DNA of 64,000 bases from Candidatus Bipolaricaulota bacterium (GTDB lineage Bacteria; Patescibacteriota; Patescibacteriia; UBA11705; DATKZF01), in NCBI GenBank assembly GCA_035528115.1, contig DATKZF010000003.1, positions 359,089-423,088 of the forward strand, written 5' to 3'. The stretch's first letter is position 1, and the number at the start of each line of letters is the position of its first letter. The position numbers were made by a program, and so were the translations under genes. Shown piece after piece: positions 5,841 to 59,576 of this stretch. The notes below the pieces were generated by a model. It saw nothing but the letters and a program-made list of their open reading frames with translations. It searched no databases and was not told the DNA's origin.

Positions 5841-5912
5841 TGGCGCGGGCGGGCGCGCCCCGGTAGGAACAGGGCAATGCCCTGTTCCTACATCGGCGGC
5901 AACGCCGCCAGC
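5841..5912. repeat. GC-rich multi-hairpin palindromic element, copy 1 (core palindrome GTAGGAACAGGGCAATGCCCTGTTCCTAC)
   Basis: Perfect inverted repeat at 5863-5891 followed by a second hairpin GGCGGCaacGCCGCC. About 75% GC within an AT-rich genome. Further copies are at 8912-9030 and 14238-14326. Confidence 0.8.
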
Positions 5913-7525: not shown

Positions 7526-8968
7526 TCATCTCCATCTCTTTAATCTTTCTCCCTTCAACTCCATTCGGGGCATGCCTTCAACCTTAATCTTCACCTCGGC
7601 CATGGCCAATCCAACCACAATCCAAACAAACGGCAAATAAATTATTGAAAACGAATTATATTGAATCAAAATGGCGATAATCACCCAAAAAAAACCTTCC
7701 AGCAAAATTTTCCTCAATTTATCCCCACTCGCTTTCATTGCTTTATACAAATAGAATAACAACAAAACAAAAAAACTCATAATCGCCAAAAACCCCCAAA
7801 TTCCGTTTTCCGCCAAAATTTCCAAATACAAATTATTAACGATTTTCCAATCTTGCCTCGATTCCCAGGCTTTTAGCGGCGCCAAAATACCGAAACTTCC
7901 CGGCCCTGATCCGAGCCATGGATGTTCTTTGAAAATCAGCCAAGCTTCCTTAAACGTTTCTTGCCTTTCCTGAAAAGCCGCGCCTTGAAAGGGATGGGTC
8001 GCGCGGTAAATGAATTGACCCGAAATGCCTGACGGAGCGATGAAATAAATCAATGTTCCGGCCAGACTGATTAAAACCAGCGCGGACACCGCCGCGATTT
8101 TTATTTTTCGAGAAATTTTTGAATAATTGAAAACCGCGAAGAGGATCAAAACGGCCAGCCCGGCCAGAAAAGCGCCTCTGGCGCTGGTCAGAACAAAATT
8201 TATCAGACTTAAAACCAAGGTGACTCGCAAAAACCATTTCATGCGCTCGCTTTTAACTTTATTCAATAAAAACAACGAACAAAAAACAATTGGCAAAAGC
8301 AAAAAATCGGCAAAATAAAGCGGCTCAATGAAAAGGCCTTGAACTCTGGTAAATCCCAAAATACTTTTGGTATATTTTTCAGTTAAAAAAGTCCAATTCG
8401 GGCCAAGCCCGGCCATGTCGGCGATGAATTGATAAAGCCCGAAAACGCAGGTTACTAAACTTGAGACCAAAAAGACTTTGATGGCTGTCGCGACTTCTTT
8501 TATCTTGTGGAAAAACTGTGGAATAAAAATAGATAAGCTTAAAATGAACACTGTGCTGACGAAAACAAACAAACTTCTATTTAAATCCGGACTAAAAAAC
8601 AAACCAAGGCCCATGATAATAAAAAATATGATACTCAATCTTTGCAAAGTATAGATTTTAGAGAATCTTGACCTGTATTCTTCAAATAATATCTTGGCAT
8701 TTTTATTGGCGGCGACTTCAAAAATCTTTTTATAAAACCAAATCAAAATTCCGATCAATAAAAAAACATGCGTCGGCCGGACGGTCGCTCCGAAAACATT
8801 GAATACAAAAACCCTTTCAATCGGCAAACAAAAAATGGCCGCATACAGCCAATATTTGCTGCCGGAAAACGTAATTTTTAATTTTTCAAATATATTTTTC
8901 ACATTTGAAATTTCGCGCGGCAGCGCGCGATCGCGCGCCGTAGGAACAGGGCAATGCCCTGTTCCCAC
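7526..8968 (-). CDS. O-antigen ligase / Wzy-like polysaccharide polymerase family membrane protein (paralog)
   Basis: Polytopic membrane protein with a Wzy_C-like loop. The annotated N-terminus (MGTGHCPVPTARDRALP) is read out of the GC-rich palindromic repeat, so the real start is probably downstream, possibly a non-ATG codon. Confidence 0.5.
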   Translation of the reverse strand: MGTGHCPVPTARDRALPREISNVKNIFEKLKITFSGSKYWLYAAIFCLPIERVFVFNVFGATVRPTHVFLLIGILIWFYKKIFEVAANKNAKILFEEYRSRFSKIYTLQRLSIIFFIIMGLGLFFSPDLNRSLFVFVSTVFILSLSIFIPQFFHKIKEVATAIKVFLVSSLVTCVFGLYQFIADMAGLGPNWTFLTEKYTKSILGFTRVQGLFIEPLYFADFLLLPIVFCSLFLLNKVKSERMKWFLRVTLVLSLINFVLTSARGAFLAGLAVLILFAVFNYSKISRKIKIAAVSALVLISLAGTLIYFIAPSGISGQFIYRATHPFQGAAFQERQETFKEAWLIFKEHPWLGSGPGSFGILAPLKAWESRQDWKIVNNLYLEILAENGIWGFLAIMSFFVLLLFYLYKAMKASGDKLRKILLEGFFWVIIAILIQYNSFSIIYLPFVWIVVGLAMAEVKIKVEGMPRMELKGERLKRWR

Positions 8969-10422: not shown

Positions 10423-10719
10423 TTAAATGCTTTGGGACAAATCATCCCAATCCGGATTCATTTCCTCAATCAGCCGGATTTTCTTTTCCCTTCTCCATTT
10501 CTTCAATTGCTTTTCCCGCTCAATCGCTTCATTAATATCATTGAAATTTTCAAAATACACCAGTCTGGTGCAATTGTATTTTTTTGTAAAACCTTCAATT
10601 ATTTTATCTTGGTGTTCAGCCACTCTTCTGACCAAATCGTTCGTTACTCCAACGTATAACGTTCTTTTATAGCTTGCCATTATATAAACATGGTAATTGT
10701 TTTCAAACATATGCATCAT
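10423..10719 (-). CDS. GIY-YIG nuclease superfamily protein (YhbQ/UPF0213-like small nuclease)
   Basis: YVYIMASYKRTLYVGVTNDLVRRVAEH matches the GIY...YIG motif. 98 aa. Bracketed on both sides by the MITE-like inverted-repeat elements. Confidence 0.7.
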   Translation of the reverse strand: MMHMFENNYHVYIMASYKRTLYVGVTNDLVRRVAEHQDKIIEGFTKKYNCTRLVYFENFNDINEAIEREKQLKKWRREKKIRLIEEMNPDWDDLSQSI

Positions 10720-11295: not shown

Positions 11296-12717
11296 TCATG
11301 ACTTCAACGAAACCATCTCCTTCACCGTCTCCTTTTTAATCACCCCAAACACCGCCAACAAAGAAAAATAAACGGCCATGCCGATTAAAATCAGCCAGAT
11401 GACGTTAAGGTCGCGCAAGAAATAAATGACCCCGGCCATAATGCCGGCCGCGACCAAGGATTTGCCGAAATTGACCAGGGACGGAAAAAATTTGACTGCC
11501 CGATAAACCACAATGCCGGTCAAAATCATGATCATGACTTCGGACGCCACGGTGAACGCCGCGGCCGCCCAGTATCCGTATTGCGGAATGAAAACGAAAT
11601 AGCCGATCAAGGCCACGATGGCCGTGGCCAAATAGCCCCAGATCATTTGCTTTTGCTTGTTGACGCCGACAACCGCGTAACCGAACAGCGTGCCGAAAAA
11701 AATGGCGCCGGCCGCGAAAATCAATATTTTTAAAATATCGCCCGAACCCGCGAAATCCGAACCGGCAATCAATGTCATGACTTTTTCTCCAATGACCAAA
11801 CCGCCCAAAACAACGGGCAAGGCCATCATGGCCATGGCGTCAAAAGATATTTGAAGCAAATGCTTGACCCCGTCCAGTTTTTTTTCAATCCAGTCTTTGG
11901 CCAGCAGCGGCAAAATAAGTCCCATGAATAAAGCGGGCAACATGGTTAAAATATCAATCACGCGGTACGCCGCGCCGTACAAGCCCACATCCGCGTTCGG
12001 CCAGTACAAAGACAGGATAACCGTGTCCGTTTTCAAATACAAAAGATTGCAGGAAATGGAAATCGCGATCGGCCAACTCTTCTTCAAAATCCCCAGCCAA
12101 ACATCTTTATCAAAAGTGAATTTTATTTTCACGTATTTTCTCGAAGCCAGATACGAAATCAAAAGGTGCGTGAAGCTGCCCAGCGAGATCATCCAAAAAA
12201 TCAAATAAATATTCGCCTGAAAATACATGGCTGTCGCAATGCCCGCCAACAAAACGATCCTGCCAATAACCTCGGCGATGCTGTAAATGAACATTTTCAA
12301 TTCTTTTTGAAAAACGCTGGCCAAAATATTATTTATCGAAATGAAAAAGAAGGAAAAAACCACAATGGCCACGCCCAGCTTGATTTCCATGGCATACGGG
12401 AAAAACAAAACGACGATCGGCGCCAGAGATAAAAAAATAAACGCGGAAATAACGCGCAAAGTCAGCATGTTGCTCAAGTACTTATCAATATTTATCCCCG
12501 GGTTGCCCACAGTTCTGGTCGCGGTGAGTGACAACCCGAAATCCACGATTATGCCGAAAAACGACAGGAACGCGACTACGGTGATATATTGACCGAAGCC
12601 CTCCGGTCCCAAATACCTGGTCATCAAAGCAACCACAAAAATACCCAGGATCGTGGTGGCGATCTTGCCGATGAATTGAACGATGGTGTTTCTGGCCAAC
12701 TGTTTTGTTAATGACAT
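11296..12717 (-). CDS. polysaccharide biosynthesis protein / Wzx-like flippase (MOP superfamily)
   Basis: 473 aa with about 12-14 TM helices. The overall pattern matches the Polysacc_synt/MATE-like family. Confidence 0.55.
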   Translation of the reverse strand: MSLTKQLARNTIVQFIGKIATTILGIFVVALMTRYLGPEGFGQYITVVAFLSFFGIIVDFGLSLTATRTVGNPGINIDKYLSNMLTLRVISAFIFLSLAPIVVLFFPYAMEIKLGVAIVVFSFFFISINNILASVFQKELKMFIYSIAEVIGRIVLLAGIATAMYFQANIYLIFWMISLGSFTHLLISYLASRKYVKIKFTFDKDVWLGILKKSWPIAISISCNLLYLKTDTVILSLYWPNADVGLYGAAYRVIDILTMLPALFMGLILPLLAKDWIEKKLDGVKHLLQISFDAMAMMALPVVLGGLVIGEKVMTLIAGSDFAGSGDILKILIFAAGAIFFGTLFGYAVVGVNKQKQMIWGYLATAIVALIGYFVFIPQYGYWAAAAFTVASEVMIMILTGIVVYRAVKFFPSLVNFGKSLVAAGIMAGVIYFLRDLNVIWLILIGMAVYFSLLAVFGVIKKETVKEMVSLKS

Positions 12718-12888: not shown

Positions 12889-13176
12889 TTAAATACTCTG
12901 TGATAAATCATCCCAACACCCATTCATTGATTCAATCAATTGAATCTTCTTTTCTCTTCTCCACTTTTTTAATTGCTTTTCCCTATCAATAGCTTCATTT
13001 ATATCATTGAAAAGTTCATAATACACAAGACTGGCGCAATTATACTTTTTCGTAAAACCTTCAAAAACTTTATCCTTGTGCTCACTGACTCTTCTCTTCA
13101 AATCATTTGTTACCCCAACATATAATGTTCTTTTAAAACTTGCCATTATATAAACATAATAATCATTTTCAAACAT
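12889..13176 (-). CDS. GIY-YIG nuclease superfamily protein (paralog of 10423..10719)
   Basis: YVYIMASFKRTLYVGVTNDLKRRVSEH. About 75% identical to the first copy. Bracketed by GCGGAGAAATCTTTTCCAA upstream and TTAGGAAAAGATCTCTCCGC downstream. Confidence 0.7.
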   Translation of the reverse strand: MFENDYYVYIMASFKRTLYVGVTNDLKRRVSEHKDKVFEGFTKKYNCASLVYYELFNDINEAIDREKQLKKWRREKKIQLIESMNGCWDDLSQSI

Positions 13177-14237: not shown

Positions 14238-14326
14238 GCGGCCGCGGCCGGCGCGCAATCGCGCGCGTAGGAACAGGGCATTACCCTGTTCCTACATCGG
14301 CGACACATTCGTCGCCGCCGGCCGCT
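14238..14326. repeat. GC-rich multi-hairpin palindromic element, copy 3 (inside the rpmH-dnaA intergenic/origin region)
   Basis: Core palindrome GTAGGAACAGGGCATTACCCTGTTCCTAC at 14268-14296. Second hairpin GGCGACacattcGTCGCC shows compensatory changes relative to copies 1 and 2. Confidence 0.8.
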
Positions 14327-14329
14327 GAT

Positions 14330-14529
14330 TTGCATAATCCCAAAAATTCTATACAATGAATTTATATTATTCACACCTAATGCACAGCTTGCCAACTTTA
14401 TCCGCCTTGCGACAAATATTATCCACAGAAAAATTGTGTTATAATACGAACACAAAAAAATTCCCATATTTCCACTTGTTTTTACCTCTTTAAAATAAAA
14501 ATAAAGAAAAATTAATCCCCATTTTTCCT
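14330..14529. promoter_or_regulatory. oriC part 1 / dnaA promoter region with DnaA boxes
   Basis: Perfect DnaA box TTATCCACA at 14419-14427. One-mismatch box TTATTCACA at 14367-14375 and TTTATCCGC at 14397-14405. AT-rich. Confidence 0.55.
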
Positions 14530-15924
14530 ATGACTCAAGAAAATGAACAACTCTGGCAAACAGTGCTGGGGGAATTGGAGCTCAATTTGAGCAAGGCCAG
14601 CTTCACCACCTGGTTCAAGAACACCTTTATTCTCGACAACGAGGATGGCAGGATCATTATCGGCGTGCCCAACACTTTTTCTCAGGCATGGCTGAAACAG
14701 AAATATCATAATGATATTTTTAAGACATTGCAGAATCTGACAGGGAAAAGAATCAAAGACGTCAATTATAAAGTTCAGAATAAAAAAGACTTCAGACCCA
14801 CGGAAAAAATTCCGGTTCCCGTGGTCGAAGGGGTCGTTCGCGAAGAACTCATTTCCTCTCAGCCGACCACGCCTCTTCTCGAACAAAATAGCGGCGCGTA
14901 TCAAAACATTAACCGCAATTACGCTTTTGTCAGTTTTATAGTTGGTAAAAACAATGAATTGGCGCACGCCGCGGCCAAGGCCGTGGCCGAAAATCCGGGA
15001 TTCACTTATAATCCCCTTTTTATTTACGGCGGGGTCGGACTGGGAAAAACCCATCTGCTTCAATCCATTGGCAATGAAATCCTCATTAAAAACAGCCAAA
15101 AAAAGATTTTATACGTCACTTGCGAACAATTCACCAATGATTTTATCAATGGTATTTCTTCGGGCAATTCCGGTAAATTCCAATCTTATTATCGCGGTCC
15201 GGACGTGCTTTTAATAGACGACATTCAATTTTTAACCGGCAAAGAAGGCACGCAAGAAGCTTTCTTTCATACGTTCAATGATCTGCATCAACGAAACAAG
15301 CAAATAGTTATCACTTCGGATCGGCCGCCGAAAGCCATTGCCACTCTCGAGGACAGGCTTCTTTCAAGGTTTGAGTGGGGCATGATTGCCGATATTTCCC
15401 AGCCGGACATGGAAACGAGAATGGCTATTTTGGAGAAAAAATGCCTTGAAAAAAACTTTAATCTGAATAGGGACATTGTTCAATACATCACCCAAAACAT
15501 TCAAAACAACGTTCGGGAACTCGAAGGAGCTCTCAATAAGATTATCGCTTATCATCAATTGAATAAAATAGAACCGACGCTGGAAAACATTAAAAAAATA
15601 CTATTCTCTTTAAGCAATGCCGGCGGACAAAAAAACTCAGTCACTCCGCGGCACTTGATTGAAACCGTGGGTAAATTTTACGAAATAGGCCTTGAGGACA
15701 TTACAGGCAAGTGCAGACAAAAACGATTGGCCTTTCCCAGACAAATAATAATGTATTTGATGAGAGAAGAACTCAGGGAGTCTTATCCTTCAATCGGCCA
15801 AGAATTGGGAGGCAGGGATCATACCACGGCCATGCACGCGCACAGTAAAATTTTAAACTTGCTCGAAACGGATGAAAAGCTCAGACAAGAAATAAACCTG
15901 CTCAAACAACTGCTGTATCAATAA
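14530..15924 (+). CDS. dnaA: chromosomal replication initiator protein DnaA
   Basis: Walker A GGVGLGKTHLL, the LLIDDIQFL sensor, and the C-terminal DNA-binding helix DHTTAMHAHSKI. Confidence 0.95.
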   Translation: MTQENEQLWQTVLGELELNLSKASFTTWFKNTFILDNEDGRIIIGVPNTFSQAWLKQKYHNDIFKTLQNLTGKRIKDVNYKVQNKKDFRPTEKIPVPVVEGVVREELISSQPTTPLLEQNSGAYQNINRNYAFVSFIVGKNNELAHAAAKAVAENPGFTYNPLFIYGGVGLGKTHLLQSIGNEILIKNSQKKILYVTCEQFTNDFINGISSGNSGKFQSYYRGPDVLLIDDIQFLTGKEGTQEAFFHTFNDLHQRNKQIVITSDRPPKAIATLEDRLLSRFEWGMIADISQPDMETRMAILEKKCLEKNFNLNRDIVQYITQNIQNNVRELEGALNKIIAYHQLNKIEPTLENIKKILFSLSNAGGQKNSVTPRHLIETVGKFYEIGLEDITGKCRQKRLAFPRQIIMYLMREELRESYPSIGQELGGRDHTTAMHAHSKILNLLETDEKLRQEINLLKQLLYQ

Positions 15925-16188: not shown

Positions 16189-17319
16189 ATGAAATTCATT
16201 TGTACACAGGAGAATCTAAATAGGGGGTTGTTCATCACCGGACATTTATCAAACAAGAACGTTAATCTTCCGATATTAAACAACGTGTTATTGAAAGTAA
16301 CGGAGGGAGCACTGACTTTAGCTTCAACCAATTTGGAAATAGGCATTAGCGCGACGGTTCGAGGTAAATTGGAAAAGGAAGGAGAATTCACGGTAGAATC
16401 CAGATTGATTTCTGATTTTGTAAGTTTATTGCCCAACGAAAAAGTGGAATTGCTTTTGGACAAAGACGATTACTTGAAGGTCAGCACTTCTAATTCCAAA
16501 ACCCGCATAAAAGGATTGCCCGCTACTGACTTCCCCGTCATCCCTAAAATTGAAAAAGACGATCCGTATATCGTCAATATCAAAGACTTGCAAAAAGCCA
16601 TTTCGCAAGTGATCTTCGCGGTTTCCACCAATGAATCGCGGCCGGAAATCAGCGGCGTTTTTATGAGCCTTCATTCTGAAAACAATAAATTAACGTTGGC
16701 CGCTACGGACAGCTATCGTTTGGCTGAAAAGAAAGTGGATATTTCAGGAAATAAGAACAAGAAGGAATTGATCGTGCCCGTGAAAACGTTTCAAGAACTT
16801 TTGCGTATTTTGACCGCGCTGAAAGACGATCCAGACGGCGCGGAAAACATTGAAATCTTCATCACGGAAAATCAAATCTTGTTTTCTTTAAGCAGCGGCA
16901 TTGAAATTATTTCCAGAACAGTGGAAGGACAATATCCTGATTACAAACAAATTATCCCAAATGAAAATAAAACAAAGGTGACCGTGGAGACACCAAGGCT
17001 TTTGAAGACCATTAAAACCACCAGTTTGTTTTCCAAAACGGGCATTTTCGACATCAATCTTGAATTTCTGGATGACAAGAAAAGCTTGGTGGTTTCTTCT
17101 ACTAATAATCAGCTGGGCGAAAGCGTTTCCGAAATGGAAGTTGACTTTCACGGGGATAAAAATCAAACGGTGATAAATTACAGGTATCTTTTGGACGGGT
17201 TGAATAACCTCGACAGCGACAATGTGTCCTTGGAAATCATTGACGGCAATGTGCCGCTCATTATCAGGCCGGCGGAAGATACCGGGTATTTGTATATTAT
17301 AATGCCGATAAAGCAGTAG
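16189..17319 (+). CDS. dnaN: DNA polymerase III beta sliding clamp
   Basis: 376 aa. Conserved position after dnaA. Three-domain clamp-like sequence. Confidence 0.9.
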   Translation: MKFICTQENLNRGLFITGHLSNKNVNLPILNNVLLKVTEGALTLASTNLEIGISATVRGKLEKEGEFTVESRLISDFVSLLPNEKVELLLDKDDYLKVSTSNSKTRIKGLPATDFPVIPKIEKDDPYIVNIKDLQKAISQVIFAVSTNESRPEISGVFMSLHSENNKLTLAATDSYRLAEKKVDISGNKNKKELIVPVKTFQELLRILTALKDDPDGAENIEIFITENQILFSLSSGIEIISRTVEGQYPDYKQIIPNENKTKVTVETPRLLKTIKTTSLFSKTGIFDINLEFLDDKKSLVVSSTNNQLGESVSEMEVDFHGDKNQTVINYRYLLDGLNNLDSDNVSLEIIDGNVPLIIRPAEDTGYLYIIMPIKQ

Positions 17320-17370
17320 ACATGGAACACGTATCATGTATCACATAGCACATAACACAAACCCACCCGC

Positions 17371-17404
17371 CCAGCGGAAAGATTGTCTTTCCGCTGTTTT
17401 GTTT
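17371..17404 (+). terminator. rho-independent terminator after dnaN
   Basis: CAGCGGAAAGAttgtCTTTCCGCTG followed by TTTTGTTT. Confidence 0.65.
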
Positions 17405-17512
17405 AACAAAAAAAACGCTTTGCAAAGAAAGTGTTTTTATGGCTGTGCCATCCGATTCGTCTATTGGAGGAACACCACGAGCGAGCCCGAGCAGCGCCGA
17501 GGGCGAGTCGAG

Positions 17513-17599
17513 TGGTGCCGGCGGACGGAGTCGAACCGTCACGGATTTTCATCCACAGGATTTTAAGTCCTGCGTGTATACCAATTTCACCACGCCGGC
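17513..17599 (-). tRNA. tRNA-Leu (anticodon TAA), class II long variable arm, CCA encoded
   Basis: Reverse complement GCCGGCGTGGTGAAATTGGTATACACGCAGGACTTAAAATCCTGTGGATGAAAATCCGTGACGGTTCGACTCCGTCCGCCGGCACCA. Anticodon loop is CTTAAAA. Confidence 0.85.
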
Positions 17600-17700
17600 C
17601 TACGCTCTCACTACGTTCGAGCTTCGGCCGGTCTTCGACTCCGAGGTTCGACGATCTCGTCGCTCAGACTCGAGGAGCAGGCCGGCCAAGGCTTTTAATT
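17600..17700. repeat. tRNA-adjacent GC-rich repeat T1 (GGTCTTCGACTCC ... CGACGATCTCGTCG ... CAGACTCGAGGAGCAGGCC)
   Basis: Related copies lie at 18021-18140, 59441-59576 and, inverted, at 50953-51017. Each abuts the 5' end of a tRNA except the 50953 copy. Confidence 0.7.
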
Positions 17701-17945
17701 TATTCGAGCTTCGGCCATCTATGCCGGCCAAAGCAAAGTTTTCGCTTCGTTCAATCTACGGCCGGCGGGCCGGCTATAGAAAGATTAAAGAGCAAAGTGC
17801 AAAAATAAAAAAATAGAATTAAGATCAAAGTTTTGGTGTGATTTGTTTCTATTTAAAACTCCAGCCTCCGACCCCCGCAAAGTCTGACAGGCGAAATGGC
17901 CTGCCAGCCGTAGCTCCGACGAGCGGAGCGAGGAGGAGCGAAGGC

Positions 17946-18020
17946 TGGAGCGGGTAACGGGAATCGAACCCGTATCTCTGCCTTGGCAAGGCAATATAAT
18001 AACCATTATACGATACCCGC
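17946..18020 (-). tRNA. tRNA-Gly (anticodon GCC), CCA encoded
   Basis: Reverse complement GCGGGTATCGTATAATGGTTATTATATTGCCTTGCCAAGGCAGAGATACGGGTTCGATTCCCGTTACCCGCTCCA. Confidence 0.85.
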
Positions 18021-18140
18021 CTACGCTTTCGCTTCGCTCAAGCTTCGGCGGGTCTTCGACTCCGCCCTCGGCCGTGAGCTCGGGCCGAACGGAGGTCTGA
18101 CGATCTCGTCGTTCAGACTCGAGGAGCAGGCCCGCCTGTT
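18021..18140. repeat. tRNA-adjacent GC-rich repeat T2
   Basis: Shares GGTCTTCGACTCCG...CAGACTCGAGGAGCAGGCC with T1 and carries an extra internal GGCCGTGAGCTCGGGCC hairpin. Confidence 0.7.
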
Positions 18141-18366
18141 GATAGGCTGTGTAAATATTCAATTTACATAAAAAATTATATCAAGGTAGCCATGAAAAGT
18201 CAATAAATTTAATTGATCGCGGTTTTTTTAAAGTTCCACTGAGATTTTCTTTTTTTATCTAAAATTAGAGAATATTGCAAAATTTTGAATTGACATAAAT
18301 TTATAAAAGTGTTAACCTTTTTAGAATGTTTGCCATAGTGGCGGACATGGAAGTACGGAGAGATGA

Positions 18367-19804: not shown

Positions 19805-20827
19805 ATGACAAAAACAGCTGACAAGGAAAACAGAATCGCCAGCCCGATCGCCAAAATCAATGAAAATGAGATGGAAACCTCCCTTCGTCCGCGCAAGCTG
19901 GACGAATATATCGGGCAGAACAAAATAAAGGAAAACGTTTTGATTTCAATTGAGGCGGCGAAAAAACGAAATGAGCCGCTGGAACATATTTTATTATTCG
20001 GCCCGCCCGGACTGGGAAAAACCACTTTGGCGCATGTGATCGCCAATGAAATGGGAACCAATATGCGCGTGACTTCCGGCCCGGCCATTGAAAAGGGCGG
20101 AGATTTGGCCGCCATTTTAACCAATCTGCAGCCGGGCGATATTTTATTTATCGACGAAATTCACCGGTTGAACAGATCTATTGAAGAAATATTGTACCCG
20201 GCCATGGAAGATTACGCTTTGGACATTGTCATCGGCAAGGGACCGTCCGCGCGCACTGTGCGGCTGGAGTTGCCGAAGTTCACCTTAATCGGCGCCACGA
20301 CCAAAATCAGCTGTCTGTCCGCCCCTCTTAGAGATCGTTTCGGCAATGTCTATCGTCTGGATTTTTATTCGCATGAAGATATTGAAAAAATAATTTTAAG
20401 ATCGGCCAGGGTTTTGAACTGCGATTTTTTTGACGAATGTTCAAAAGACATTGCGGCGCGTTCGCGCAAAACGCCTCGCGTGGCCAATCGTTTGTTAAAA
20501 CGCGTGCGCGATTTTGCGGAAGTGAAAAACAACGGCCGGATCGAACGACAAATCGCGGAGCAAGCTTTGAAAATGCTGGAAATAGACGAGCTGGGTCTCG
20601 ACGATGTGGACAGAAAATTGCTTTTAACGATTATTGATAAATTCGCCGGAGGTCCGGTGGGTTTGAATACCATTGCCGCGGCCACCTCCGAGGAAATGGA
20701 CGCCATTGAAGATGTTTTCGAGCCATTTTTGTTGCAACTCGGCTTTATCGATCGCACGCCGCGAGGCAGAATGGTGACCGAAAAGGCGTACAAGCATTTG
20801 AATGTGCCGTTTGCGCGTAACACATAG
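19805..20827 (+). CDS. ruvB: Holliday junction branch migration DNA helicase RuvB
   Basis: [22 protein letters not shown] Walker A and [10 protein letters not shown]. Confidence 0.95.
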
Positions 20828-20968
20828 CACGTAGCATGAATCATGGAGCATGAAGCAATTGGCAAGGTTTTTAGTCGAGTAGGTTATTAGATTGCTTTCC
20901 CTAAGAACCTAATAACCTAAAAATACTCAAAACTCATTACTCGTTACCGATTACAGAATTAATATTTT

Positions 20969-28213: not shown

Positions 28214-28753
28214 TTAAAAGTCTTGATCCGGAATCAGGCCGGCAATGCCACCGTTCACTAAACGGCGATGACTGATCTGAACCAGTGGAACCCGGCCCCC
28301 CTTAAATGTCGTGAAACCATGGCGTTGGGTTCTGTCCTCTATTGTCGCCACTCTGCTCCTAACTCGACGCAAATCGTCTTGCAGATCCTCCAACCGACCG
28401 TCAAGTTTCGAGAGATCCTTGCGGAGGCCGTCTTGTCCCTTTCTCACCTCTTCGCGCAGAGCGTCCTGACCCTGCTTCATCTTTCCCAGGTCGTCCGCAA
28501 GGGTTCCCACGCGGGCGTCGAGGTGATCCTGACCCTGCTTCATCTTTCCCAGGTCGTCCGCAAGGGTTCCCACGCGGGCGTCGAGGTGATCCTGACACTG
28601 CTTCATCTTTTCCAGGTCGTCCGCAAGGGTTCCCACGCGGGCGTCGAGGTGATCCTGACACTGCTTCACCTCCTTGCGGAGGGCGTCCTGGCCCGCCTTC
28701 ACTTCCTTGATACCTACTAGAATCTCACTTGTGTTGTCGAATTGCGTTTCCAT
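28214..28753 (-). CDS. coiled-coil protein with three tandem 21-aa repeats (QDHLDARVGTLADDLGKMKQG)
   Basis: Three copies of a 63-nt tandem DNA repeat at about 28440-28640. SD GAGAGGGA lies before the ATG. Architecture resembles the AT-rich ORF 62816..63163. The plus-strand ORF 28268..28720 is its antisense image. Confidence 0.5.
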   Translation of the reverse strand: METQFDNTSEILVGIKEVKAGQDALRKEVKQCQDHLDARVGTLADDLEKMKQCQDHLDARVGTLADDLGKMKQGQDHLDARVGTLADDLGKMKQGQDALREEVRKGQDGLRKDLSKLDGRLEDLQDDLRRVRSRVATIEDRTQRHGFTTFKGGRVPLVQISHRRLVNGGIAGLIPDQDF

Positions 28754-30840: not shown

Positions 30841-31157
30841 GGGATAAGTAAAATTTTTTTAAGTGCCCCTCGACTTCGCTCGGGACATTCGACTCGTCTG
30901 GTGGTGGAACACCATGAGCGAGTCCGAGATTTCGAGGACGAGTCGAATGGTGGAGCCGAGTAGAGGAAGTTAGAACTTTTTTCGTCGCCGGAGCGCGCAA
31001 TACTGCCGATCCTGGCCGGGTACCTGCAGAGTACCACGACCGCACTGCTCGAGGATGTGCGAGAATATGACCTCGAGCACATGGCGAGAGTTCAGCATCC
31101 GAAGCAGCTCTGTCCAAACTCCTTGCCAGTTCGTAATTGGCCACGACGCAGTATGTA

Positions 31158-31186
31158 TTGACAGCAGATCCTATTAGTGCTAGGAT
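31158..31186 (+). promoter_or_regulatory. sigma70-like promoter (TTGACA, 17 nt, TAGGAT) inside the island
   Basis: TTGACA at 31158-31163. The -10 is imperfect. Confidence 0.3.
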
Positions 31187-31262
31187 ACCATATCCAGCCG
31201 CATCTTTCCCTCCCTTGCGTGCCCACCGAATTCCGGCAGGCAGACATCAGAGGGGAAGGGGG

Positions 31263-31514
31263 ATGGCTATGGGTCTTGCAAAGCATTTGCTACTCTGCGT
31301 AACGCTATTCCTAGCGTTTATGGCATTTTGGTATCTAACGATGGAAGGGTGGGCTAACGGCCAAGAAGGAGTCCAGTCGTGTGGTGGTGGATGCGGACGA
31401 ATTCTGTTTCTTCTGGAGGTCCTCTTGGCACAGACAGGCTCACTTTTGACGATGTGCATACTGCACTGGAGTGGACTGCCTCGTGGCAAGAGGCGAGATT
31501 CTCAGCAGTCCTAG
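31263..31514 (+). CDS. hypothetical small membrane protein (island cargo)
   Basis: SD GAAGGGGGA before the ATG. One or two hydrophobic helices and a CGGGCG motif. Trimmed from ORF 31137..31514. Confidence 0.3.
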   Translation: MAMGLAKHLLLCVTLFLAFMAFWYLTMEGWANGQEGVQSCGGGCGRILFLLEVLLAQTGSLLTMCILHWSGLPRGKRRDSQQS

Positions 31515-31856
31515 TTCCGAAGTTGTTCTGGCGGAACCGATCATCCGTGTTCCGCCTTTTTGTTTTCCCGCAAGAAACTCATGCGGCTTGATGCAATAGA
31601 TGACTCTCGGGTCATCGAACAGATGGGTCGGAAACGCCATTCCGACCCATTTCCATTGAACAGCGCTCATCGACAGCGAAGAAGACCGTCAATTCTTGCG
31701 CCGTCGTAGCCCTGCACGTAGTCGGACCCAATCACAGCGAACGGCAAACTGAGGTTGTCGGACCCGAGGATCCTTGATAGTCGTCGCGCCGACTCAGGAT
31801 CGCGCTCCACGTCGCGGCGACGATAGAATTGGAGCACGGTTGCCCTTCGTCCGCAA

Positions 31857-32360
31857 CTACGCGGAAATGTCTGCCAATTCCAATGACATGCTCGCCGCAA
31901 GATCGCCTGGACTGAATCTCATGCCACAGTACTCATCGCCACCGGCTCCGGTGACCAGCGCTCTCCGAAGAACGTTCCTATCAATGATCCTCCGATCACA
32001 AGACGATACAGCCACCGGCGGGACTCCACCAATACGAAACTGGGTCACCGACTCGATCTGCTGGGGCGTGGCGAATCGAAGTTTCTTGACGCCGACCAGT
32101 TCCGCGACCCTGCGAACGTCCAGTCGGTCAGATCCTAGTATTATGCAAGCGATGAATACATCCTCCCTTGGAGCATGCAAGACGAGTGTCTTGATGATGT
32201 TTTCCGATGCGGTTTCGAGGGCGGCAGAGGCCTGCGAGGTCGTCTTTCCAGACTGCTCGTGCATCATGAACTGGGCCCTCAGACCTACGCAACTTGCCAG
32301 TCTCTTCGCGCGGTCGATGGCTCCGGTGTCCAACTGGCGCTCCTTTCCAATCAGGTTGGC
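31857..32360 (-). CDS. YbaK/ProX-like aminoacyl-tRNA deacylase domain protein (island cargo)
   Basis: IKTLVLHAP...RLDVRRVAELVGVKKLRFATPQQIESVTQFRIGGVPPVA parallels the YbaK KTLV...GGVSP pattern. The 5' end is uncertain: no in-frame ATG at the expected position, so a GTG/TTG start is possible. The ORF-track entry extends to 32642. Confidence 0.45.
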   Translation of the reverse strand, partial: ANLIGKERQLDTGAIDRAKRLASCVGLRAQFMMHEQSGKTTSQASAALETASENIIKTLVLHAPREDVFIACIILGSDRLDVRRVAELVGVKKLRFATPQQIESVTQFRIGGVPPVAVSSCDRRIIDRNVLRRALVTGAGGDEYCGMRFSPGDLAASMSLELADISA

Positions 32361-32934
32361 GTGACAGACTTTGGGCGCACGTCTGAACGGTGGTAGGGGC
32401 GTGACGGACGGGGAGGTCGTGCTTGCACCCACAGCGGCACCCTCGAGGAACGAGGTCAGCGATTGGCCTGTGCCATGCCTCACCTGGCGTTGGGAACATG
32501 TCCGGCCGTCCGTTTCCGCGGGCACGCGGTGTACTCCTCTGCTGGTGTTGTTCATACTACATGCTTGGCCGCCGGTCGTCTTGGCCGCCGGCATTTGTGT
32601 TTCACTCATGCTAATTGTACGGAGATTGCGCATGCTTGTCAACCAGGCATCTCACTGAATTCCTCAAGCCGGCCTGCGTGGGTTCAGCGCAAACGGGGCC
32701 GTTGACAGCCTTCCAGTTCGCTGCTACGAAGACCACAGAGATCTCTGCGCCCGTGCAAAATGGATGGCCCGGTAGCTGCAGGATCGAACTGACGCCCGTC
32801 TTCACGACCTCTCGGGTCTTCCGTTCGCAACGGCCTCGCTCGGTCGCACCGGCCACGCGGAGCGAATGAGACAAGGTCGCAACCATCGCGACGGCATAAG
32901 TGTAGAATATATATACTACGTGAAGATAGATGTT

Positions 32935-32980
32935 AGAGCGAGAGAGATAGACACCTAGGAATGTCTATCTCTCTCGCTCT
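32935..32980. repeat. perfect 19-bp-arm palindrome AGAGCGAGAGAGATAGACA-cctaggaa-TGTCTATCTCTCTCGCTCT
   Basis: Arms at 32935-32953 and 32962-32980 are exact reverse complements. The 8-nt spacer contains CCTAGG. It lies about 350 bp upstream of the serine recombinase gene. Confidence 0.85.
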
Positions 32981-32985
32981 CTATC

Positions 32986-33297
32986 TTGAGTACTCTTGGA
33001 CGAGCCGTGTGCGACCGGGACCGCCTGCCGCTGCATGCTTTCGGTGTCTCCGCCACCCCCTGCCCGGACCAACCCAGGCGCGATACGCTTGTGGTGTTCA
33101 ACTACATGCCATTGACACAAGATGACATCGAGGATCTCAAGGGGCTGCTCAGGGCCGAGTACGGCGAGGAGGTGCCGCACGACGAGGCCTGGGACGTTGG
33201 CCTTTCTCTAGTCGAGCTGTGTCGAGTCGCTCTCCGGCCAGCCCCCGCGGCAAGGGAGTCAGACCCGACTGTGGATAACTCGCAGCTTGCCAAATAG
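32986..33297 (+). CDS. hypothetical small acidic protein upstream of the recombinase (possible accessory/directionality factor)
   Basis: ORF in GC-rich DNA. The segment MPLTQDDIEDLKGLLRAEYGEEVPHDEAWDVGLSLVEL looks protein-like. Low confidence because GC-rich DNA yields many spurious ORFs. Confidence 0.25.
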   Translation: MSTLGRAVCDRDRLPLHAFGVSATPCPDQPRRDTLVVFNYMPLTQDDIEDLKGLLRAEYGEEVPHDEAWDVGLSLVELCRVALRPAPAARESDPTVDNSQLAK

Positions 33298-33337
33298 CCT
33301 GGCCAGCTCTACGATCCACAATGAACGCTCGCCACCT

Positions 33338-34954
33338 ATGAAGCATTGCTATATTTACGCTAGAAAATCGTCGGAGTCCGAGGACCGACAGGTTCTGTCC
33401 ATCGACTCGCAGGTCAGTGAGCTCGAGCAGCTGGCCGTCCGGCTGGGACTGCCGGTCACCCGGGTGTTTTCGGAGTCGAAGTCCGCCAAGACTCCCGGGA
33501 GGCCGGTTTTCACCGACATGCTAGAACGTCTTCGTAATCCAGAGGGGAGCGTGGTGCTGTGTTGGAAACTCGATCGGCTGGCCCGAAACCCGCTTGATGG
33601 CGGGGCAGTGATTTGGGCGGTCGAGGAGCGCCAGATCGGGGAGATCGTCACTCCGGGTCGGACCTTCCGCAACACCGCCGACGACAAGTTCTGGATGCAA
33701 CTCGAATTCGGGATGGCCAAGAAGTACGTGGACGACTTGTCTGACAACATCAAGCGCGGAAACAGGGCCAAGCTCCAGCGCGGCCAGATCCCGGGGCAGG
33801 TCCCCCTCGGCTACACCAAGGACCCCTGCACAGGCGACACGATCCCCGATCCGGAACGGTTCGAGTTGGTTCGGCGCATTTGGCAGCGGCTTGTTGATGG
33901 CCACCGGCCGGCAGAGATCCTGAGGGTCGCCTCGAGCGACTGGGGTCTGCGAACGCGAGGTTCCAAGAGGACCGCGAGCGGGCCGCTATCGCCGTCGTAC
34001 TTCTACCGGTTGCTCTCGAATCCGTTTTACGCCGGCGTGGTTCAGCGTGCGGGCCAGGTCTACGTCGGTGCCCACCAGGCGATGGTCAGCCAACATGAGT
34101 TCGACCTGGCCCAGAGGATGTTGGCGGGCAGGTCCAACTCGAGATCTCAGCGCCACGAGCACACCTACGCCGGGCTACTGCGCTGCGGGGTGTGTGGCCG
34201 CATGTTCACCGGAGAGAGCCACACCAACCGCTACGGATCCACGTACGTGTACTACCGGTGCACTCGAAAGCGGCTGGGTAGCAGGGTGTGCCCCCAGCCC
34301 TACGTGCCCGAGAAGGTCATCGACGAGCAGGTGCTCGACTACCTCGGAAGGCTCTCAGTGCCGAGGCAGTTTGTGGACTGGGCCTGCAAGCGCCTCGAGC
34401 GCCTCGCAGCAGAGGATCAAGCGACCGAGCAGGTGGCGCAGTCGTCGATCGAGAAGGGCCTCGCTGCGGCCCAACGCAAACTCGAGAACCTGACGCAGCT
34501 GCGATTGTCCGAGATGATTGGTGACGAAGAATTCGTACTAGAGCGAGCCAGACTGCTGGACGAGGTCGCCGGTTTCAAGGCCCGCCTGGCCGCGCCCTCG
34601 ACCACGGGTCCCGCGTGGCTGCAGCCCACGAAGGAGGCGCTCGCCCTCGCCTCAAGGGCCGAAAATCTGTATCGCAGTGGACTGAAGGACGACAAACGGA
34701 CCATCCTGCGGGCCATCGGGTCGAACTTCTTCATCAGGGACCGGATTGTGCTAATCCAAGCCAAGAAACCGTTTCGCATTCTGGCCGCCGCCCGCGATTC
34801 CTCCGAGCCCGAGCCACCGCGGGTCGAACCCCGGGATTTTGGCTCAGCCAAACAAAAAAACGAGCCATCGAGTGGTCGTTTTCTCCTGTGGTGGACCCTA
34901 AGGGATTCGAACCCTTGGCCTCCTCCATGCCATGGAGGCGCTCTAGCCAACTGA
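33338..34954 (+). CDS. large serine recombinase (resolvase/invertase catalytic domain, recombinase domain and zinc-ribbon)
   Basis: N-terminal YIYARKSSESEDRQVLSIDSQ carries the catalytic Ser motif. The central region matches the recombinase domain. Zinc ribbon CGVCGRMFTG...YYRCTRKRLGSRVCPQP. Start trimmed to the ATG at 33338. The 3' end overlaps tRNA-Ala, so the true stop is uncertain. Confidence 0.85.
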   Translation: MKHCYIYARKSSESEDRQVLSIDSQVSELEQLAVRLGLPVTRVFSESKSAKTPGRPVFTDMLERLRNPEGSVVLCWKLDRLARNPLDGGAVIWAVEERQIGEIVTPGRTFRNTADDKFWMQLEFGMAKKYVDDLSDNIKRGNRAKLQRGQIPGQVPLGYTKDPCTGDTIPDPERFELVRRIWQRLVDGHRPAEILRVASSDWGLRTRGSKRTASGPLSPSYFYRLLSNPFYAGVVQRAGQVYVGAHQAMVSQHEFDLAQRMLAGRSNSRSQRHEHTYAGLLRCGVCGRMFTGESHTNRYGSTYVYYRCTRKRLGSRVCPQPYVPEKVIDEQVLDYLGRLSVPRQFVDWACKRLERLAAEDQATEQVAQSSIEKGLAAAQRKLENLTQLRLSEMIGDEEFVLERARLLDEVAGFKARLAAPSTTGPAWLQPTKEALALASRAENLYRSGLKDDKRTILRAIGSNFFIRDRIVLIQAKKPFRILAAARDSSEPEPPRVEPRDFGSAKQKNEPSSGRFLLWWTLRDSNPWPPPCHGGALAN

Positions 34955-34965
34955 GCTAAGGGCCC
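34889..34965 (-). tRNA. tRNA-Ala (anticodon GGC), G3:U70, CCA encoded
   Basis: Reverse complement GGGCCCTTAGCTCAGTTGGCTAGAGCGCCTCCATGGCATGGAGGAGGCCAAGGGTTCGAATCCCTTAGGGTCCACCA. Confidence 0.85.
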
Positions 34966-35068: not shown

Positions 35069-35145
35069 TGGTGCAGCCGGAAGGATTTGAACCCTCAACC
35101 CCTTGGTCCGAAGCCAAGTGCTCTATCCAGTTGAGCTACGACTGC
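35069..35145 (-). tRNA. tRNA-Arg (anticodon TCG), CCA encoded
   Basis: Reverse complement GCAGTCGTAGCTCAACTGGATAGAGCACTTGGCTTCGGACCAAGGGGTTGAGGGTTCAAATCCTTCCGGCTGCACCA. Confidence 0.75.
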
Positions 35146-35151
35146 ATTAGA

Positions 35152-35209
35152 AATAAACCTTGCCTGTCCGCCGAAGCTCCGAGCATAGCGAGGAGCGAAG
35201 GCGGAAGCT
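35152..35209. repeat. GC-rich insert (family shared with 17880-17945) flanked by a 16-nt direct repeat AGCTACGACTGCATTA that duplicates the tRNA-Arg 5' end
   Basis: Direct repeats at 35135-35150 and 35207-35222. Insert core CTTGCCTGTCCGCCGAAGCTCCGAGCATAGCGAGGAGCGAAGGCGG resembles GCTCCGACGAGCGGAGCGAGGAGGAGCGAAGGC next to tRNA-Gly. Confidence 0.55.
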
Positions 35210-35311
35210 ACGACTGCATTAAAAATGTTGACAATAGATTAACATTCGACTCGTTTTTTGGCAAGTCCGAGGCAATAAAAACTTAAGCAGCTTTGCCTAA
35301 GTTTTTCGGCA

Positions 35312-38260: not shown

Positions 38261-38308
38261 ACGTTACAAATATTGCGGCTATTAAGATAGCCTTTGTTTT
38301 ATATTTTA

Positions 38309-38446
38309 ATTGTTACGAATTACAATATTCTATTTAGCTTTTAGGTTATTTGTTACGAATTACAATCTGCTAAAGCATAAAGCCATAGAGGAATGTACTT
38401 CGTAACAATCGATTGGAAGCCAAGTGGAATATTGTAATTCGTAACG
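38309..38446. repeat. L-family element L1: inverted pair of units with 40-bp periodicity built on TTGTTACGAATTACAA
   Basis: Forward units at 38311 and 38351. Reverse-complement units follow (…ATTGTAATTCGTAACG at 38432). Forms an imperfect long hairpin of about 65 bp per arm. Confidence 0.75.
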
Positions 38447-38476
38447 ATACTCCATGCTAACATCATATCACCTGCG

Positions 38477-39916: not shown

Positions 39917-40010
39917 TGCTTATAAAAAAATAAGGGTCTTATCCATGGCCTTTGTTTTTTATTTGGGTTTCGTTAAATGTTAAATATTGTTCCCTTGTTT
40001 CATTGCTTCA

Positions 40011-40207
40011 TTGTTACGAATTACAAGATTCTAATTAGCTTTTAGGTTATTTGTTGCAAATTACAATCGACTATTTGGCTTTCAGGTTATCTGTTACGCC
40101 TACCTACCTGCCTGCCGGCAGGAATTACATTTATAGCTATATGCCATAGAATCTTGTAATTCGTAACAACCGCTTCGAAGCCAAATGAAATATTGTAATT
40201 CGTAACG
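40011..40207. repeat. L-family element L2 (three forward units, a GC-rich insert with palindrome CCTGCCGGCAGG, two inverted units)
   Basis: Unit starts at 40012, 40052, 40092 and, reverse-complemented, at 40152 and 40192. Exact 40-bp spacing. Confidence 0.75.
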
Positions 40208-40229
40208 CTAATCCAGCCCCTTCGGGACT

Positions 40230-41741: not shown

Positions 41742-41759
41742 AGTTTATTATTTGAATCA

Positions 41760-41933
41760 TTGTTACGAATTACATTCACTAAAAAGCTCTTTATTTGTAT
41801 TGTTACGAAGTACAAGATTCCATTTGGCCTACGGACGAATATTACAAATTACATTCACCTATAGCCTTAAGCCTGAGAATCTTGTAATTCGTAACAAATA
41901 ACCTGAAAGCTAAATAGAATATTGTAATACGTA
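41760..41933. repeat. L-family element L3
   Basis: Forward units at 41761 and 41801. Inverted units at 41881 and 41921. Right arm GATTGTAATTCGTAACAAATAACCTGAAAGCTAAATAGAATATTGTAATACGTAAC. Confidence 0.75.
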
Positions 41934-50952: not shown

Positions 50953-51017
50953 CATGCCTGCTCCTCGAGTCTTAGCGACGAGATAGCATGCTCCGAGTCG
51001 AAGACCGGCAGGCAGGC
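50953..51017. repeat. tRNA-family GC-rich repeat T4 (inverted orientation, no tRNA adjacent)
   Basis: Reverse complement CCGGTCTTCGACTCGGAGCATGCTATCTCGTCGCTAAGACTCGAGGAGCAGGCATGC aligns with T1. Confidence 0.65.
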
Positions 51018-59330: not shown

Positions 59331-59440
59331 TCCTTCGCCAAGGCTTCGGCTGGCAGGCCATCCTTCGCGCTATCGAAGGATGCCCTTTGAAGCTTTAGCG
59401 AAGAAGGGCTTAAATTCAAAAAGTTAGTCGCTATATTTAC

Positions 59441-59576
59441 GCACGCGCTTCGCCTGCCGTCTTCGACTCCCGTTCGGCCATGAGCTCACGGCCAAGTGGC
59501 GAGGTCACTCCCTTCGTTCGAGGGCCTGAGTGGCCCCTCAGGGCCGTCGAAGGCAGACTCGAGGAGCAGGCAGGGA
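59441..59576. repeat. tRNA-adjacent GC-rich repeat T3
   Basis: GTCTTCGACTCC...GGCCATGAGCTCACGGCC...CAGACTCGAGGAGCAGGC aligns with T1 and T2. Confidence 0.65.

Follow-up and report, generated by a model that had tools for sequence, protein, structure and literature searches.

What are the short GC-rich repeats that adjoin several tRNA genes in a 64,000-nucleotide (nt) stretch of contig DATKZF010000003.1, referred to here as the window? Four copies of one such repeat, T1 to T4, make up the T family, which is the main subject of this report. The window genes dnaA (14530-15924) and dnaN (16189-17319) are located at the cumulative GC-skew minimum, and past dnaN come two minus-strand tRNA genes, tRNA-Leu(taa) and tRNA-Gly(gcc), and then an RNase J-like gene and ruvB. 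The host is a small-genome member of the Patescibacteria, or candidate phyla radiation (CPR), and its closest DnaN homologues are Patescibacteria and Falkowbacteria proteins. In one public source, the window's DnaN and its RNase III (35312-36004) are named Candidatus Bipolaricaulota, a label that is probably wrong, judging by the close homologues, all of which come from Patescibacteria or Falkowbacteria. The same locus was recovered in independent ENA, JGI, and Logan assemblies, in contigs of up to 604 kb, and the repeats are therefore not an assembly artifact.

The original prediction grouped T1 to T4 as one repeat family, including an inverted T4 with no tRNA nearby, and this is confirmed far above chance. 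The 18-nt 3' motif CAGACTCGAGGAGCAGGC occurs exactly at 17665-17682(+), 18114-18131(+), and 59554-59571(+) and with one mismatch at 50956-50973(-), i.e., four copies in the window compared to 0.03 expected from shuffles. The 5' motif GGTCTTCGACTCC accompanies every copy, at 17630, 18051, 59458 (one mismatch), and 50994(-). A covariance model of the family found the same four copies and no others in the 64 kb scanned; its structure was set by hand, and the RNAalifold fold of the first alignment was discarded, its register being poor because the 3' half of that alignment was fixed by the search anchor. The motif-to-motif lengths of T1 to T3 are 53, 81, and 114 nt, and not a uniform 100 to 140 bp as had been proposed. 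T1 and T2 each begin 31 nt from the 5' ends of tRNA-Leu (17513-17599, minus strand) and tRNA-Gly (17946-18020, minus strand), respectively, whereas T3 starts 128 nt past the 3' end of tRNA-Arg(CCT) (59254-59330, plus strand) and, unlike T1 and T2, is inverted relative to its tRNA. Nor are GC-rich elements peculiar to tRNAs: five of the eight window tRNAs are without a T element, and GC-rich intergenic segments are also frequent in the window far from tRNAs.

The explanation that we consider best, and on balance probable, is that T1 to T4 belong to a non-autonomous palindromic insertion element that is widespread in Patescibacteria and behaves like the palindromic elements of Rickettsia. The observations that carry it are the presence and absence of the element at the same sites with exact boundaries, its phylum-wide spread, the diversity of its flanks, the copies lying in frame within genes, and the occurrence of both orientations.

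The T unit is an imperfect hairpin core of 38 to 41 nt, GTC(T/A)TCGACTCCGAGG(N0-3)CTCAGACTCGAGGAG, sitting at the tip of GC-rich stems that vary between copies. The consensus of the copies from genome bins, CCTGCCTGCCGG-TCTTCGACTCCGAGG(TCG)CTCAGACTCGAGGAG-CAGGCAGG, forms, on both strands, a long hairpin in which three mismatches are fixed and 3 nt bulge out. The hairpin amounts to an imperfect duplex of ~22 bp, with a folding energy of -31 to -33 kcal/mol and a z score of about -4 to -5 on either strand. Longer copies, including T1 to T3, bear additional small hairpins at the tip, among them a recurring module with a GAGCTC loop, and the 53-, 81-, and 114-nt forms of the window arise because the core tip can bear such further modules.

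Copies outside the window were all found via exact-match anchors, and their numbers are lower bounds. An 18-mer scan covering one genome per species gave 79 loci, of which ~30 are chance matches in high-GC genomes; the remaining loci are complete elements in low-GC Patescibacteria bins, at least 24 of them, with two to seven copies each. The lineages represented are Saccharibacteria, Peri- and Peregrinibacteria, and Curtiss-, Roizman-, Berkel-, and Doudnabacteria. Three T-bearing bins with a GC content of 36 to 44% carry a Gammaproteobacteria label and may be mis-binned or mislabeled. A second scan, of metagenomes, was anchored on the core interior only, with the flanks left free, and matched at least 118 contigs; duplicate populations in this set were collapsed solely by identity of 40 nt on each side, and genes at all loci outside the window were called by reading-frame heuristics. 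The CCGG...CAGGCAGG stem is found in only 14 of 80 copies of the metagenome set, and the two flank positions beside the core nevertheless pair in 70% of copies, compared to 43% when permuted, with compensating pair types (CT/AG in 24 copies, AG/CT in 13) and a flank duplex energy of -7.5 compared to -6.4 ± 0.2 kcal/mol. Because the flanks are diverse yet pair across the core, we take the 38- to 41-nt core to be the conserved unit.

Searches of reference collections gave no counterpart. Only tRNAs reached the gathering score in Rfam 15, where nothing relevant appeared at E ≤ 10 over 17300-18250, and no match to the cores of the hammerhead, twister, pistol, or hatchet ribozymes was seen by eye, so that a known ribozyme or riboswitch was rejected as a candidate. 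IMG/VR contained no exact match to the 18-mer, i.e., no viral contig, and carriage by phages was set aside on the same result. In the literature searched, no match was found for the core sequence or for small palindromic elements, including those of the MITE type (miniature inverted-repeat transposable elements), in the CPR.

The evidence for insertion comes from filled and empty versions of the same sites. The relatives L083 and L085, whose DnaN proteins are 81 to 82% identical to that of the window, have these tRNA-Leu and tRNA-Gly genes as well, and most of the leader sequence is shared, except that L083 is without the tRNA-Gly leader module. In the tRNA-Leu leader, where the window reads GGCCGG, then 46 nt, then CAGGCCGGCC, L085 has GGCCGGCAGGCCGGCC and L083 has GGCCGGCAAGCCGGCC; the relatives' empty site is CTTCGGCCGG^CAGGCCGGCC (CAAG in L083), and the extra 46 nt of the window lie exactly at the caret. 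The L085 tRNA-Gly leader, GGCGGGCAGGCCCGC, is the empty site GGCGGG^CAGGCCCGC, at which the window is 74 nt longer. The T core is lacking at GG^CAGG in relatives that retain the leader hairpins, with exact boundaries, and it was not found in L083 or L085 across the same origin region. An unfilled palindrome of the window near 40.1 kb has the same left flank as T4 and is a paralogous empty copy of the T4 site; the same empty 20-bp palindrome occurs in the T-bearing genomes L048, L066, and L027. The tRNA-Leu, tRNA-Gly, and 40.1-kb sites show no target duplication (at most 1 nt of ambiguity). Direct repeats of at least 5 nt flank 18% of copies, compared to 7.5% when permuted, and have no fixed length. 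Two loci from one Saccharibacteria bin (L006, 7404-7460, and L050, 5329-5385) share their flanks, while the asymmetric interior of one is the exact reverse complement of the other; such opposite orientations of the core between identical flanks would result if insertion took place at a palindrome's mirror-image site.

These T elements are discrete insertions, polymorphic at orthologous and paralogous sites. The suggestion that they are mobile, one of several made originally, is upheld by the orthologous tRNA-Leu and tRNA-Gly loci, the unfilled paralogous site, and a close TsaD orthologue (below), all without the insert. In the comparison of orthologous tRNA loci, which the original prediction had called for, the core is precisely absent in relatives, and the separate leader and trailer hairpins are partly conserved. 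Because L083 and L085 resemble each other (85% DnaN identity) more than either resembles the window, the tRNA loci alone cannot separate gain from loss. The copies inside coding genes identify the filled state as derived.

The core is open in five of its six reading frames, and about 20 of 130 distinct copies (~15%) lie well inside long reading frames, where they are read in five frames and in both orientations. Encoded peptides include VFDSEVAQTRG, GLRLRGRSDSRS, SSTPRSLRLEE, LLESERPRSRR, and SSSLSDLGVED. The host proteins, assigned by Pfam, are IF-2, NAD-dependent DNA ligase (LigA), M17 aminopeptidase (PepA), PPDK, a GT4 glycosyltransferase, a class II aminoacyl-tRNA synthetase, PriA, an EF-Tu-type translational GTPase, a metallo-beta-lactamase-fold protein, and FemAB, and the copy often falls within the Pfam domain envelope. 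Against solved structures, Pgk has ~22 and TsaD ~36 extra residues at the copy. When TsaD sequences from 15 Patescibacteria were aligned, the 27-residue insert was present in L186 only; the corresponding 81 nt are missing from the closest homologue found (P0121/L206, 72% identical by BLASTP) and from 13 others. The DNA of that closest homologue reads TTAATC^AAGCATC where L186 carries the 81 extra nt, which fold as TTCGAC-GCTCAG-core-CTGAGC-GTCGAA, and any target duplication at this site is at most AA. No gene is split or frame-shifted around any copy, the candidates for this being ordinary adjacent genes. The in-frame, stop-free pattern fits translation together with selection against disruptive insertion, not removal from the RNA, and a mini-intron was rejected on the same grounds. 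The in-gene copies are presumably translated as extra loops, to judge from their reading frames. Patescibacteria TsaD homologues in general (P0135, P0187, P0176, P0232, and others) are 330 to 406 residues long and have many different inserts, e.g., PSASSGQA, and T may be one of several insert-forming elements in these proteins.

Outside the window, the association with tRNAs disappears, and with it the proposal that the T family targets them: 3 of 113 distinct copies in the metagenome set lie within 300 nt of a tRNA, compared to ~4 expected from tRNA density, and in the genome-bin set only the L033 and L064 copies lie within about 130 nt of one. The GSCAGGC motif is over-represented (23 compared to 10.6 expected), which is uninformative on tRNA linkage. 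The directions of the genes flanking the copies (++ in 24 cases, -- in 22, +- in 9, and -+ in 6) indicate no orientation preference, and orientation relative to local GC skew is 34 against 32. The hairpin is followed by no T run on either strand among the window copies and listed flanks, as an intrinsic terminator would require. The original prediction also considered a leader or trailer processing structure. It is unlikely that T is required as such a signal: the same tRNAs of L083 and L085 do without the core, T3 is 3' of its tRNA and inverted, there is no enrichment at tRNAs, and the same core lies inside coding sequences.

A broader functional RNA signal was also considered, namely, an RNase III or other processing or stability site in the precursors of tRNA, rRNA, and ribosomal-protein operons, conserved through a ribonuclease or RNA-binding protein. 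The ~22-bp duplex folds well on either strand, and besides the tRNA leaders it occurs 240 nt past the 16S 3' end in L116, near 23S and 5S genes in L095 and L104, and directly 3' of the map gene in three genomes. RNase III is encoded in the window, folding predicts for tRNA-Gly a leader-trailer pairing that encloses the entire tRNA (z -3.3), and single-base variants favor G.U pairing on the minus-form strand by ~11 to 3, in a hand tally that is biased by how the copies were found. We nevertheless judge this explanation quite unlikely, given that the element is missing at the same tRNAs in close relatives, is randomly oriented with respect to transcription, is not enriched near tRNAs, and in ~15% of copies lies within essential coding regions, where cleavage would destroy the mRNA; moreover, RNase III needs no fixed 38-nt sequence.

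As a mechanism for the insertion element, we propose that the core spreads at the DNA level by insertion. One subfamily would land in the loop of pre-existing GC-rich palindromes at GG^CAGG, on either strand and without target duplication, most likely with a trans-acting enzyme handling an intermediate that is either a folded single strand or a cruciform. Landings in genes would survive only where they are in frame and stop-free, and T1 and T2 would have landed in older tRNA-Leu and tRNA-Gly leader hairpins, T itself having no tRNA function.

Much of the same evidence could be read without any enzyme, if nested palindromes were spread by replication or repair errors (template switching or fold-back synthesis) and by gene conversion; natural transformation between co-resident Patescibacteria may help in this, homogenizing the core. 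Modules are nested one within another and always at hairpin tips, adjacent sequence (tRNA ends included) often recurs in inverted form in the flanks, both core orientations occur inside identical flanks, and there is no target duplication, linked enzyme, or GC-skew strand bias. Errors of this kind would not, however, yield the same 38- to 41-nt sequence with the same boundaries at >150 unrelated sites and within genes in many lineages, and gene conversion requires flanking homology, which is missing at most sites. We therefore regard an enzyme-free origin as unlikely. The exact conservation of the core, including its fixed mismatches and 3-nt bulge, could instead reflect a DNA site for a conserved binding protein or recombinase that serves the chromosome in nucleoid organization, segregation, or site-specific recombination. 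A low copy number per genome (two to seven, for the exact 18-mer subfamily), the location of the four window copies within 45 kb of dnaA and parS, and the position of T4 just past a XerC/D-like gene would suit such a site, but one that is polymorphic between close relatives, can fall within a gene in any frame, follows no pattern of position with respect to genes or GC skew, and was not found in the L083 and L085 origin region makes a very improbable chromosomal signal.

Several points weigh against the insertion element as well. One loss fits the tRNA-locus data as well as one gain. Comparison of the neighborhoods linked no transposase or nuclease to the T element: among open reading frames within 1.5 kb of copies, compared all against all, the shared families are housekeeping only, with no recurrent nuclease or transposase, and the small GIY-YIG genes, considered as a partner, cluster by tRNA genes and not by T cores, the nearest being 352 nt away. 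There is neither a consistent target duplication nor a single target motif across subfamilies. An identical core in class-level lineages is hard to reconcile with selfish, neutrally decaying DNA and hints at constraint, although the exact-match anchors overstate conservation and under-sample divergence, and the copy numbers are lower bounds. The translation of in-gene copies, finally, is read from their frames.

A stronger claim is that the 38- to 41-nt hairpin is actively mobile throughout the Patescibacteria, is kept identical by unrecognized, phylum-wide trans-acting machinery, inserts at hairpin tips in either orientation without target duplication, and repeatedly remodels essential proteins (IF-2, Pgk, TsaD, LigA, and PriA) and stable-RNA loci. 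We put this forward only tentatively and consider it more doubtful than insertion as such; if true, it would mean a new type of minimal mobile element, one that supplies unexplained inserts in CPR proteins and RNA gene flanks generally. Patescibacteria genomes are thought to be streamlined, yet nested GC-rich hairpin inserts abound in the window and its relatives, and one hairpin core is identical in lineages as far apart as Saccharibacteria and Microgenomates. If mobile, T would be a Patescibacteria counterpart to the Rickettsia palindromic elements (RPEs), would explain some of the odd inserts in essential proteins, could mark recent DNA exchange between lineages, and would indicate a yet unrecognized transposition or repair activity. 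In practical terms, such hairpins give rise to reading frames that are spurious or extended and break tRNA flanks up into pseudo-copies, for which annotation pipelines should allow.

RPEs, described by Ogata et al. (2000, 2002) as relayed in PMC10969869, are palindromic sequences of ~100 to 150 bp in host-dependent bacteria that lie in frame in unrelated housekeeping genes. By that account, T shares with them palindromic repeats in small genomes of host-dependent bacteria, locations that are intergenic and beside RNA genes, in-frame insertion in unrelated housekeeping genes with the gain of a peptide, and the lack of any known mobilizing enzyme (PMC10969869). The property by which RPEs are recognized, a palindrome in frame in unrelated genes with the reading frame intact, is present in T. 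Relative to RPEs as described there, T is smaller (a 38- to 41-nt core and composites of 50 to 130 nt), has an identical core across a phylum-level radiation rather than within one genus, and is read in five frames rather than in one conserved frame; it also differs in sitting at the tip of variable stems and in nesting in other hairpins. The likeness suggested here is one of behavior, T seeming to work as RPEs do, and membership is not claimed, the hosts being Patescibacteria.

Like the repetitive extragenic palindromes (REPs) and REPINs, which RAYT (Y1) transposases mobilize (PMC3116915, PMC3733652), T elements are GC-rich imperfect palindromes that often lie just after genes, cluster and nest, and would form long bulged hairpins in single-stranded DNA or RNA. 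Unlike them, T has a low copy number, also lies within genes (~15%), and is not species-specific. Neither GTAG nor CGTC tags are present in T, whose core begins G(G/T)TC(T/A)TCGAC on stems of CCTGCC and similar sequences, and no RAYT gene and no recurrent nuclease or transposase neighbor were seen in the fragments of 8 to 20 kb around copies. A classical REP/RAYT system is disfavored because of the missing GTAG tag and the low copy number. The window does have a separate REP-like family, a perfect palindrome GTAGGAACAGGGCAATGCCCTGTTCCTAC with a GTAG tag at 5863-5891, 8940-8968, and 14267-14295, each copy in a short GC-rich spacer directly after a gene.

A further parallel is offered by the small dispersed repeats of cyanobacteria, which Elhai et al. 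(Genome Research, 2008) reportedly described as palindromic units of 21 to 27 nt that insert in one another and at hairpin tips. They are said to leave no target duplication and to have been detected, as T was, by presence and absence at orthologous sites; they belong to another phylum than T and differ from it in sequence.

MITEs such as the Coxiella QMITE and the Neisseria Correia elements (PMC5896051, PMC10969869) are likewise non-autonomous and occasionally form in-frame gene fusions. T has MITE-like terminal inverted repeats, GTCTTCGACTC and CTCCTCGAGTC (right end, reverse complement) agreeing at 8 of 11 positions of the consensus, but no fixed-length target-site duplication; it is also far shorter, and no insertion sequence that shares its ends is known as a parent. 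Palindromes derived from IS200/IS605 would be expected 3' of a fixed short target that is not duplicated, with a strong bias of orientation relative to replication. An IS200/IS605-type mechanism is disfavored because there is no strand bias, orientation being evenly divided with respect to skew (34 and 32) and genes (24 and 22); the GG^CAGG target is confined to one subfamily.

Three further candidates were rejected. A tRNA-derived element was suggested by TTCGACTCCG, common to the core and the tRNA-Leu T arm, but no T-arm-like stem is possible, and we take the match to be coincidence. An integron attC site shares the variable tip and extra-helical bases but would have GTTRRRY boxes, arrays, and a fixed orientation, none of which is seen in T. 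An uptake sequence, or a Chi-like or Ter-like site, is hard to square with the copy number, the polymorphism, and the lack of strand bias.

The features of the T family and of the surrounding tRNA hairpins are listed in Table 1.

Table 1. Coordinates of T elements and of tRNA-associated hairpins in the window
Feature	Coordinates	Strand	Description
T1	17632..17677	+	Inserted core plus one extra apical hairpin, CGACGATCTCGTCG
T1 site			tRNA-Leu leader hairpin loop, between GGCCGG (17626-17631) and CAGGCCGGCC (17678-17687)
T2	18053..18126	+	Core plus two apical modules: GAGCTC-loop hairpin and CGACGATCTCGTCG
T2 site			tRNA-Gly leader hairpin loop, between GGCGGG (18047-18052) and CAGGCCCGCC (18127-18136)
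T3	59460..59566	+	Core plus two large apical modules; closing GCCTGCCG / CAGGCAGGG
T4	50961..51004	-	Inverted, slightly diverged core; closing CCTGCCTGCCGG / CAGGCATGC
T4 neighbor			T4 lies 83 nt past the stop codon of the XerC/D-like recombinase gene
Unfilled palindrome	40107..40122	.	CCTGCCTGCCGG^CAGG; left flank GGTTATYTGTTACG same as that of T4
tRNA-Leu leader module	17600..17631	-	CTACGC...GCTTCGGCCGG on the plus strand; older hairpin family
tRNA-Leu leader			Stem repeats tRNA 5' end GCCGGC; distal arm 17678-17687; second tandem copy 17678-17775
tRNA-Gly leader module	18021..18052	-	Homologous to the Leu leader; stem GGCGGG/CCCGCC mimics the acceptor end
tRNA-Leu 3' trailer hairpin	17455..17512	-	Ends TGGTG (RNA sense), pairing with the tRNA CACCA end
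Second trailer copy	30868..30960	-	Joined to tRNA 3'-end fragment TGGTGGAGCC
tRNA-Gly 3' trailer hairpin	17880..17945	-	CCTGCCAGCC...GGCTGG; one arm includes the encoded CCA end
tRNA-Arg(TCG) upstream repeat	35134..35221	-	16-nt direct repeats around a 56-nt hairpin insert
56-nt insert sequence (tRNA sense)			TCCGCC...GGCGGA-CAGGCAAGG
tRNA-Arg(CCT) GC-rich trailer	59331..59400	+	Contains GGCTTCGGCTGGCAGGCC; same hairpin vocabulary as the other trailers

The leader and trailer hairpins, and not T, are the family tied to tRNAs, and T1 and T2 are secondary insertions nested in older leader hairpins. The stems of these hairpins use or copy tRNA termini, i.e., GCCGGC for Leu, GCGGG/CCCGC for Gly, and the CCA end for the trailers, and they share motifs such as GCTTCGG and GG(C/A)CAGGC. 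The tRNA-Gly trailer hairpin is kept in both L083 and L085.

Small inserts flanked by duplicated tRNA ends, of which the original prediction had noted one, recur in this bacterial group. Among 73 tRNAs at the loci examined, seven are preceded within 250 nt by a duplicate of their own 5' end (at least 12 nt), and six are followed within 250 nt by a 10- to 20-nt duplicate of their own 3' end; the reversed control gave 0 for each. In six of the 5' cases, the repeat stops at tRNA position 12 to 14 or 24, and most inserts begin (T)CCGCC(T)TCG. The insert at the duplicated tRNA end in L033 and L064 also holds a complete T element. In L087, a more distant relative, the region 11345-11715 has 5'-end copies of 18 nt for tRNA-Gly and 28 nt for tRNA-Leu, ~86 and 100 nt upstream, respectively, with a GC-rich insert containing GGGCAGGC between the copies; the Gly insert also has an inverted copy of the tRNA 5' end.

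The repeat first noted, at tRNA-Arg(TCG), is real and exact: AGCTACGACTGCATTA lies at 35134-35149 and 35206-35221, with 0 expected, although the coordinates first given were one base off and the GC-rich insert between the repeats (35150-35205) is 56 rather than 58 nt long. Upstream of the same tRNA, the relatives L207 (3300-3510) and L208 (3300-3498) have a decayed partial copy of tRNA positions 1 to ~52, interrupted by a 22-nt GC hairpin and an ~85-nt AT-rich hairpin (TCCCGA...TCGGGA). Because relatives hold this longer decayed copy, the 16-nt repeat is better taken as what is left of a partial duplication of the tRNA, with a hairpin insert, and is probably no simple target-site duplication.

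The recurrence of the tRNA-Leu trailer near 30.9 kb stands as described. The trailer at 17455-17512 recurs at ~30877-30954, aligned through the TGGTG end of the tRNA with a mean column identity of 75%, and the second copy lies at the far edge of a GC-rich island abutting tRNA-Ala. Within this island (~30940-34965, GC content of 55 to 62%) lie genes for a large serine recombinase (33287-34954) and for a tRNA-editing-domain protein (31857-32642); its boundaries are the tRNA-Ala 3' end TGGTGGACCC and the near-repeat TGGTGGAGCC, and it looks like an integrated element at tRNA-Ala. Most simply, the 30.9-kb trailer and its tRNA fragment are the former tRNA-Ala end, displaced by the island at 31 to 35 kb.

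Small GIY-YIG genes (~85 to 98 residues) are found in the window at 10423-10719(-), 12889-13176(-), and 30579 to ~30836(-), and also in L083 (14303-14557), L090, L163, and L188. Two of the window genes form 300-nt repeats that are 80% identical and are flanked by GC-rich repeats TTGTCATCTCGACCGAAGCGGAGAGATC.... The density of such genes in the CPR loci examined is ~1.4 per 100 kb, 4 to 5 of ~14 lie directly beside a tRNA gene, and they may be mobile cassettes targeting tRNA loci.

Other features of the window include two parS sites, a canonical TGTTTCACGTGAAACA at 59186-59201 and a second copy with one mismatch at ~59804-59819, which flank the tRNA-Arg(CCT)/T3 region ~43 kb from dnaA. Arrays with a 7-nt period (CATGAAT, CACGTAT, or CACATAA) are located at 17319-17365, 20819-20857, 50867-50955, 60885-60931, and, inverted, 59209-59252; they lie directly past the stop codons of dnaN, ruvB, the XerC/D-like gene, and another gene, and similar arrays occur in relatives (L083, 14885-14950 and 15240-15400). 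Inverted-repeat boxes TTGTTACGAATTACAA at 38251-38454, 39992-40215, 41752-41936, and 51017-51080 are paired, ~40 nt apart, between divergent genes and look like operator sites; sets of them adjoin T4 and the empty palindrome at 40.1 kb. At 28464-28671, three tandem copies of a 63-nt unit, 95 to 99% identical, fall within a reading frame of the minus strand (28214-28753). DnaA-box-like sequences, TTATCCACA and variants, are present at 14400-14430, upstream of dnaA, and at 45213-45250, in a 616-nt spacer at 44.6 to 45.3 kb.

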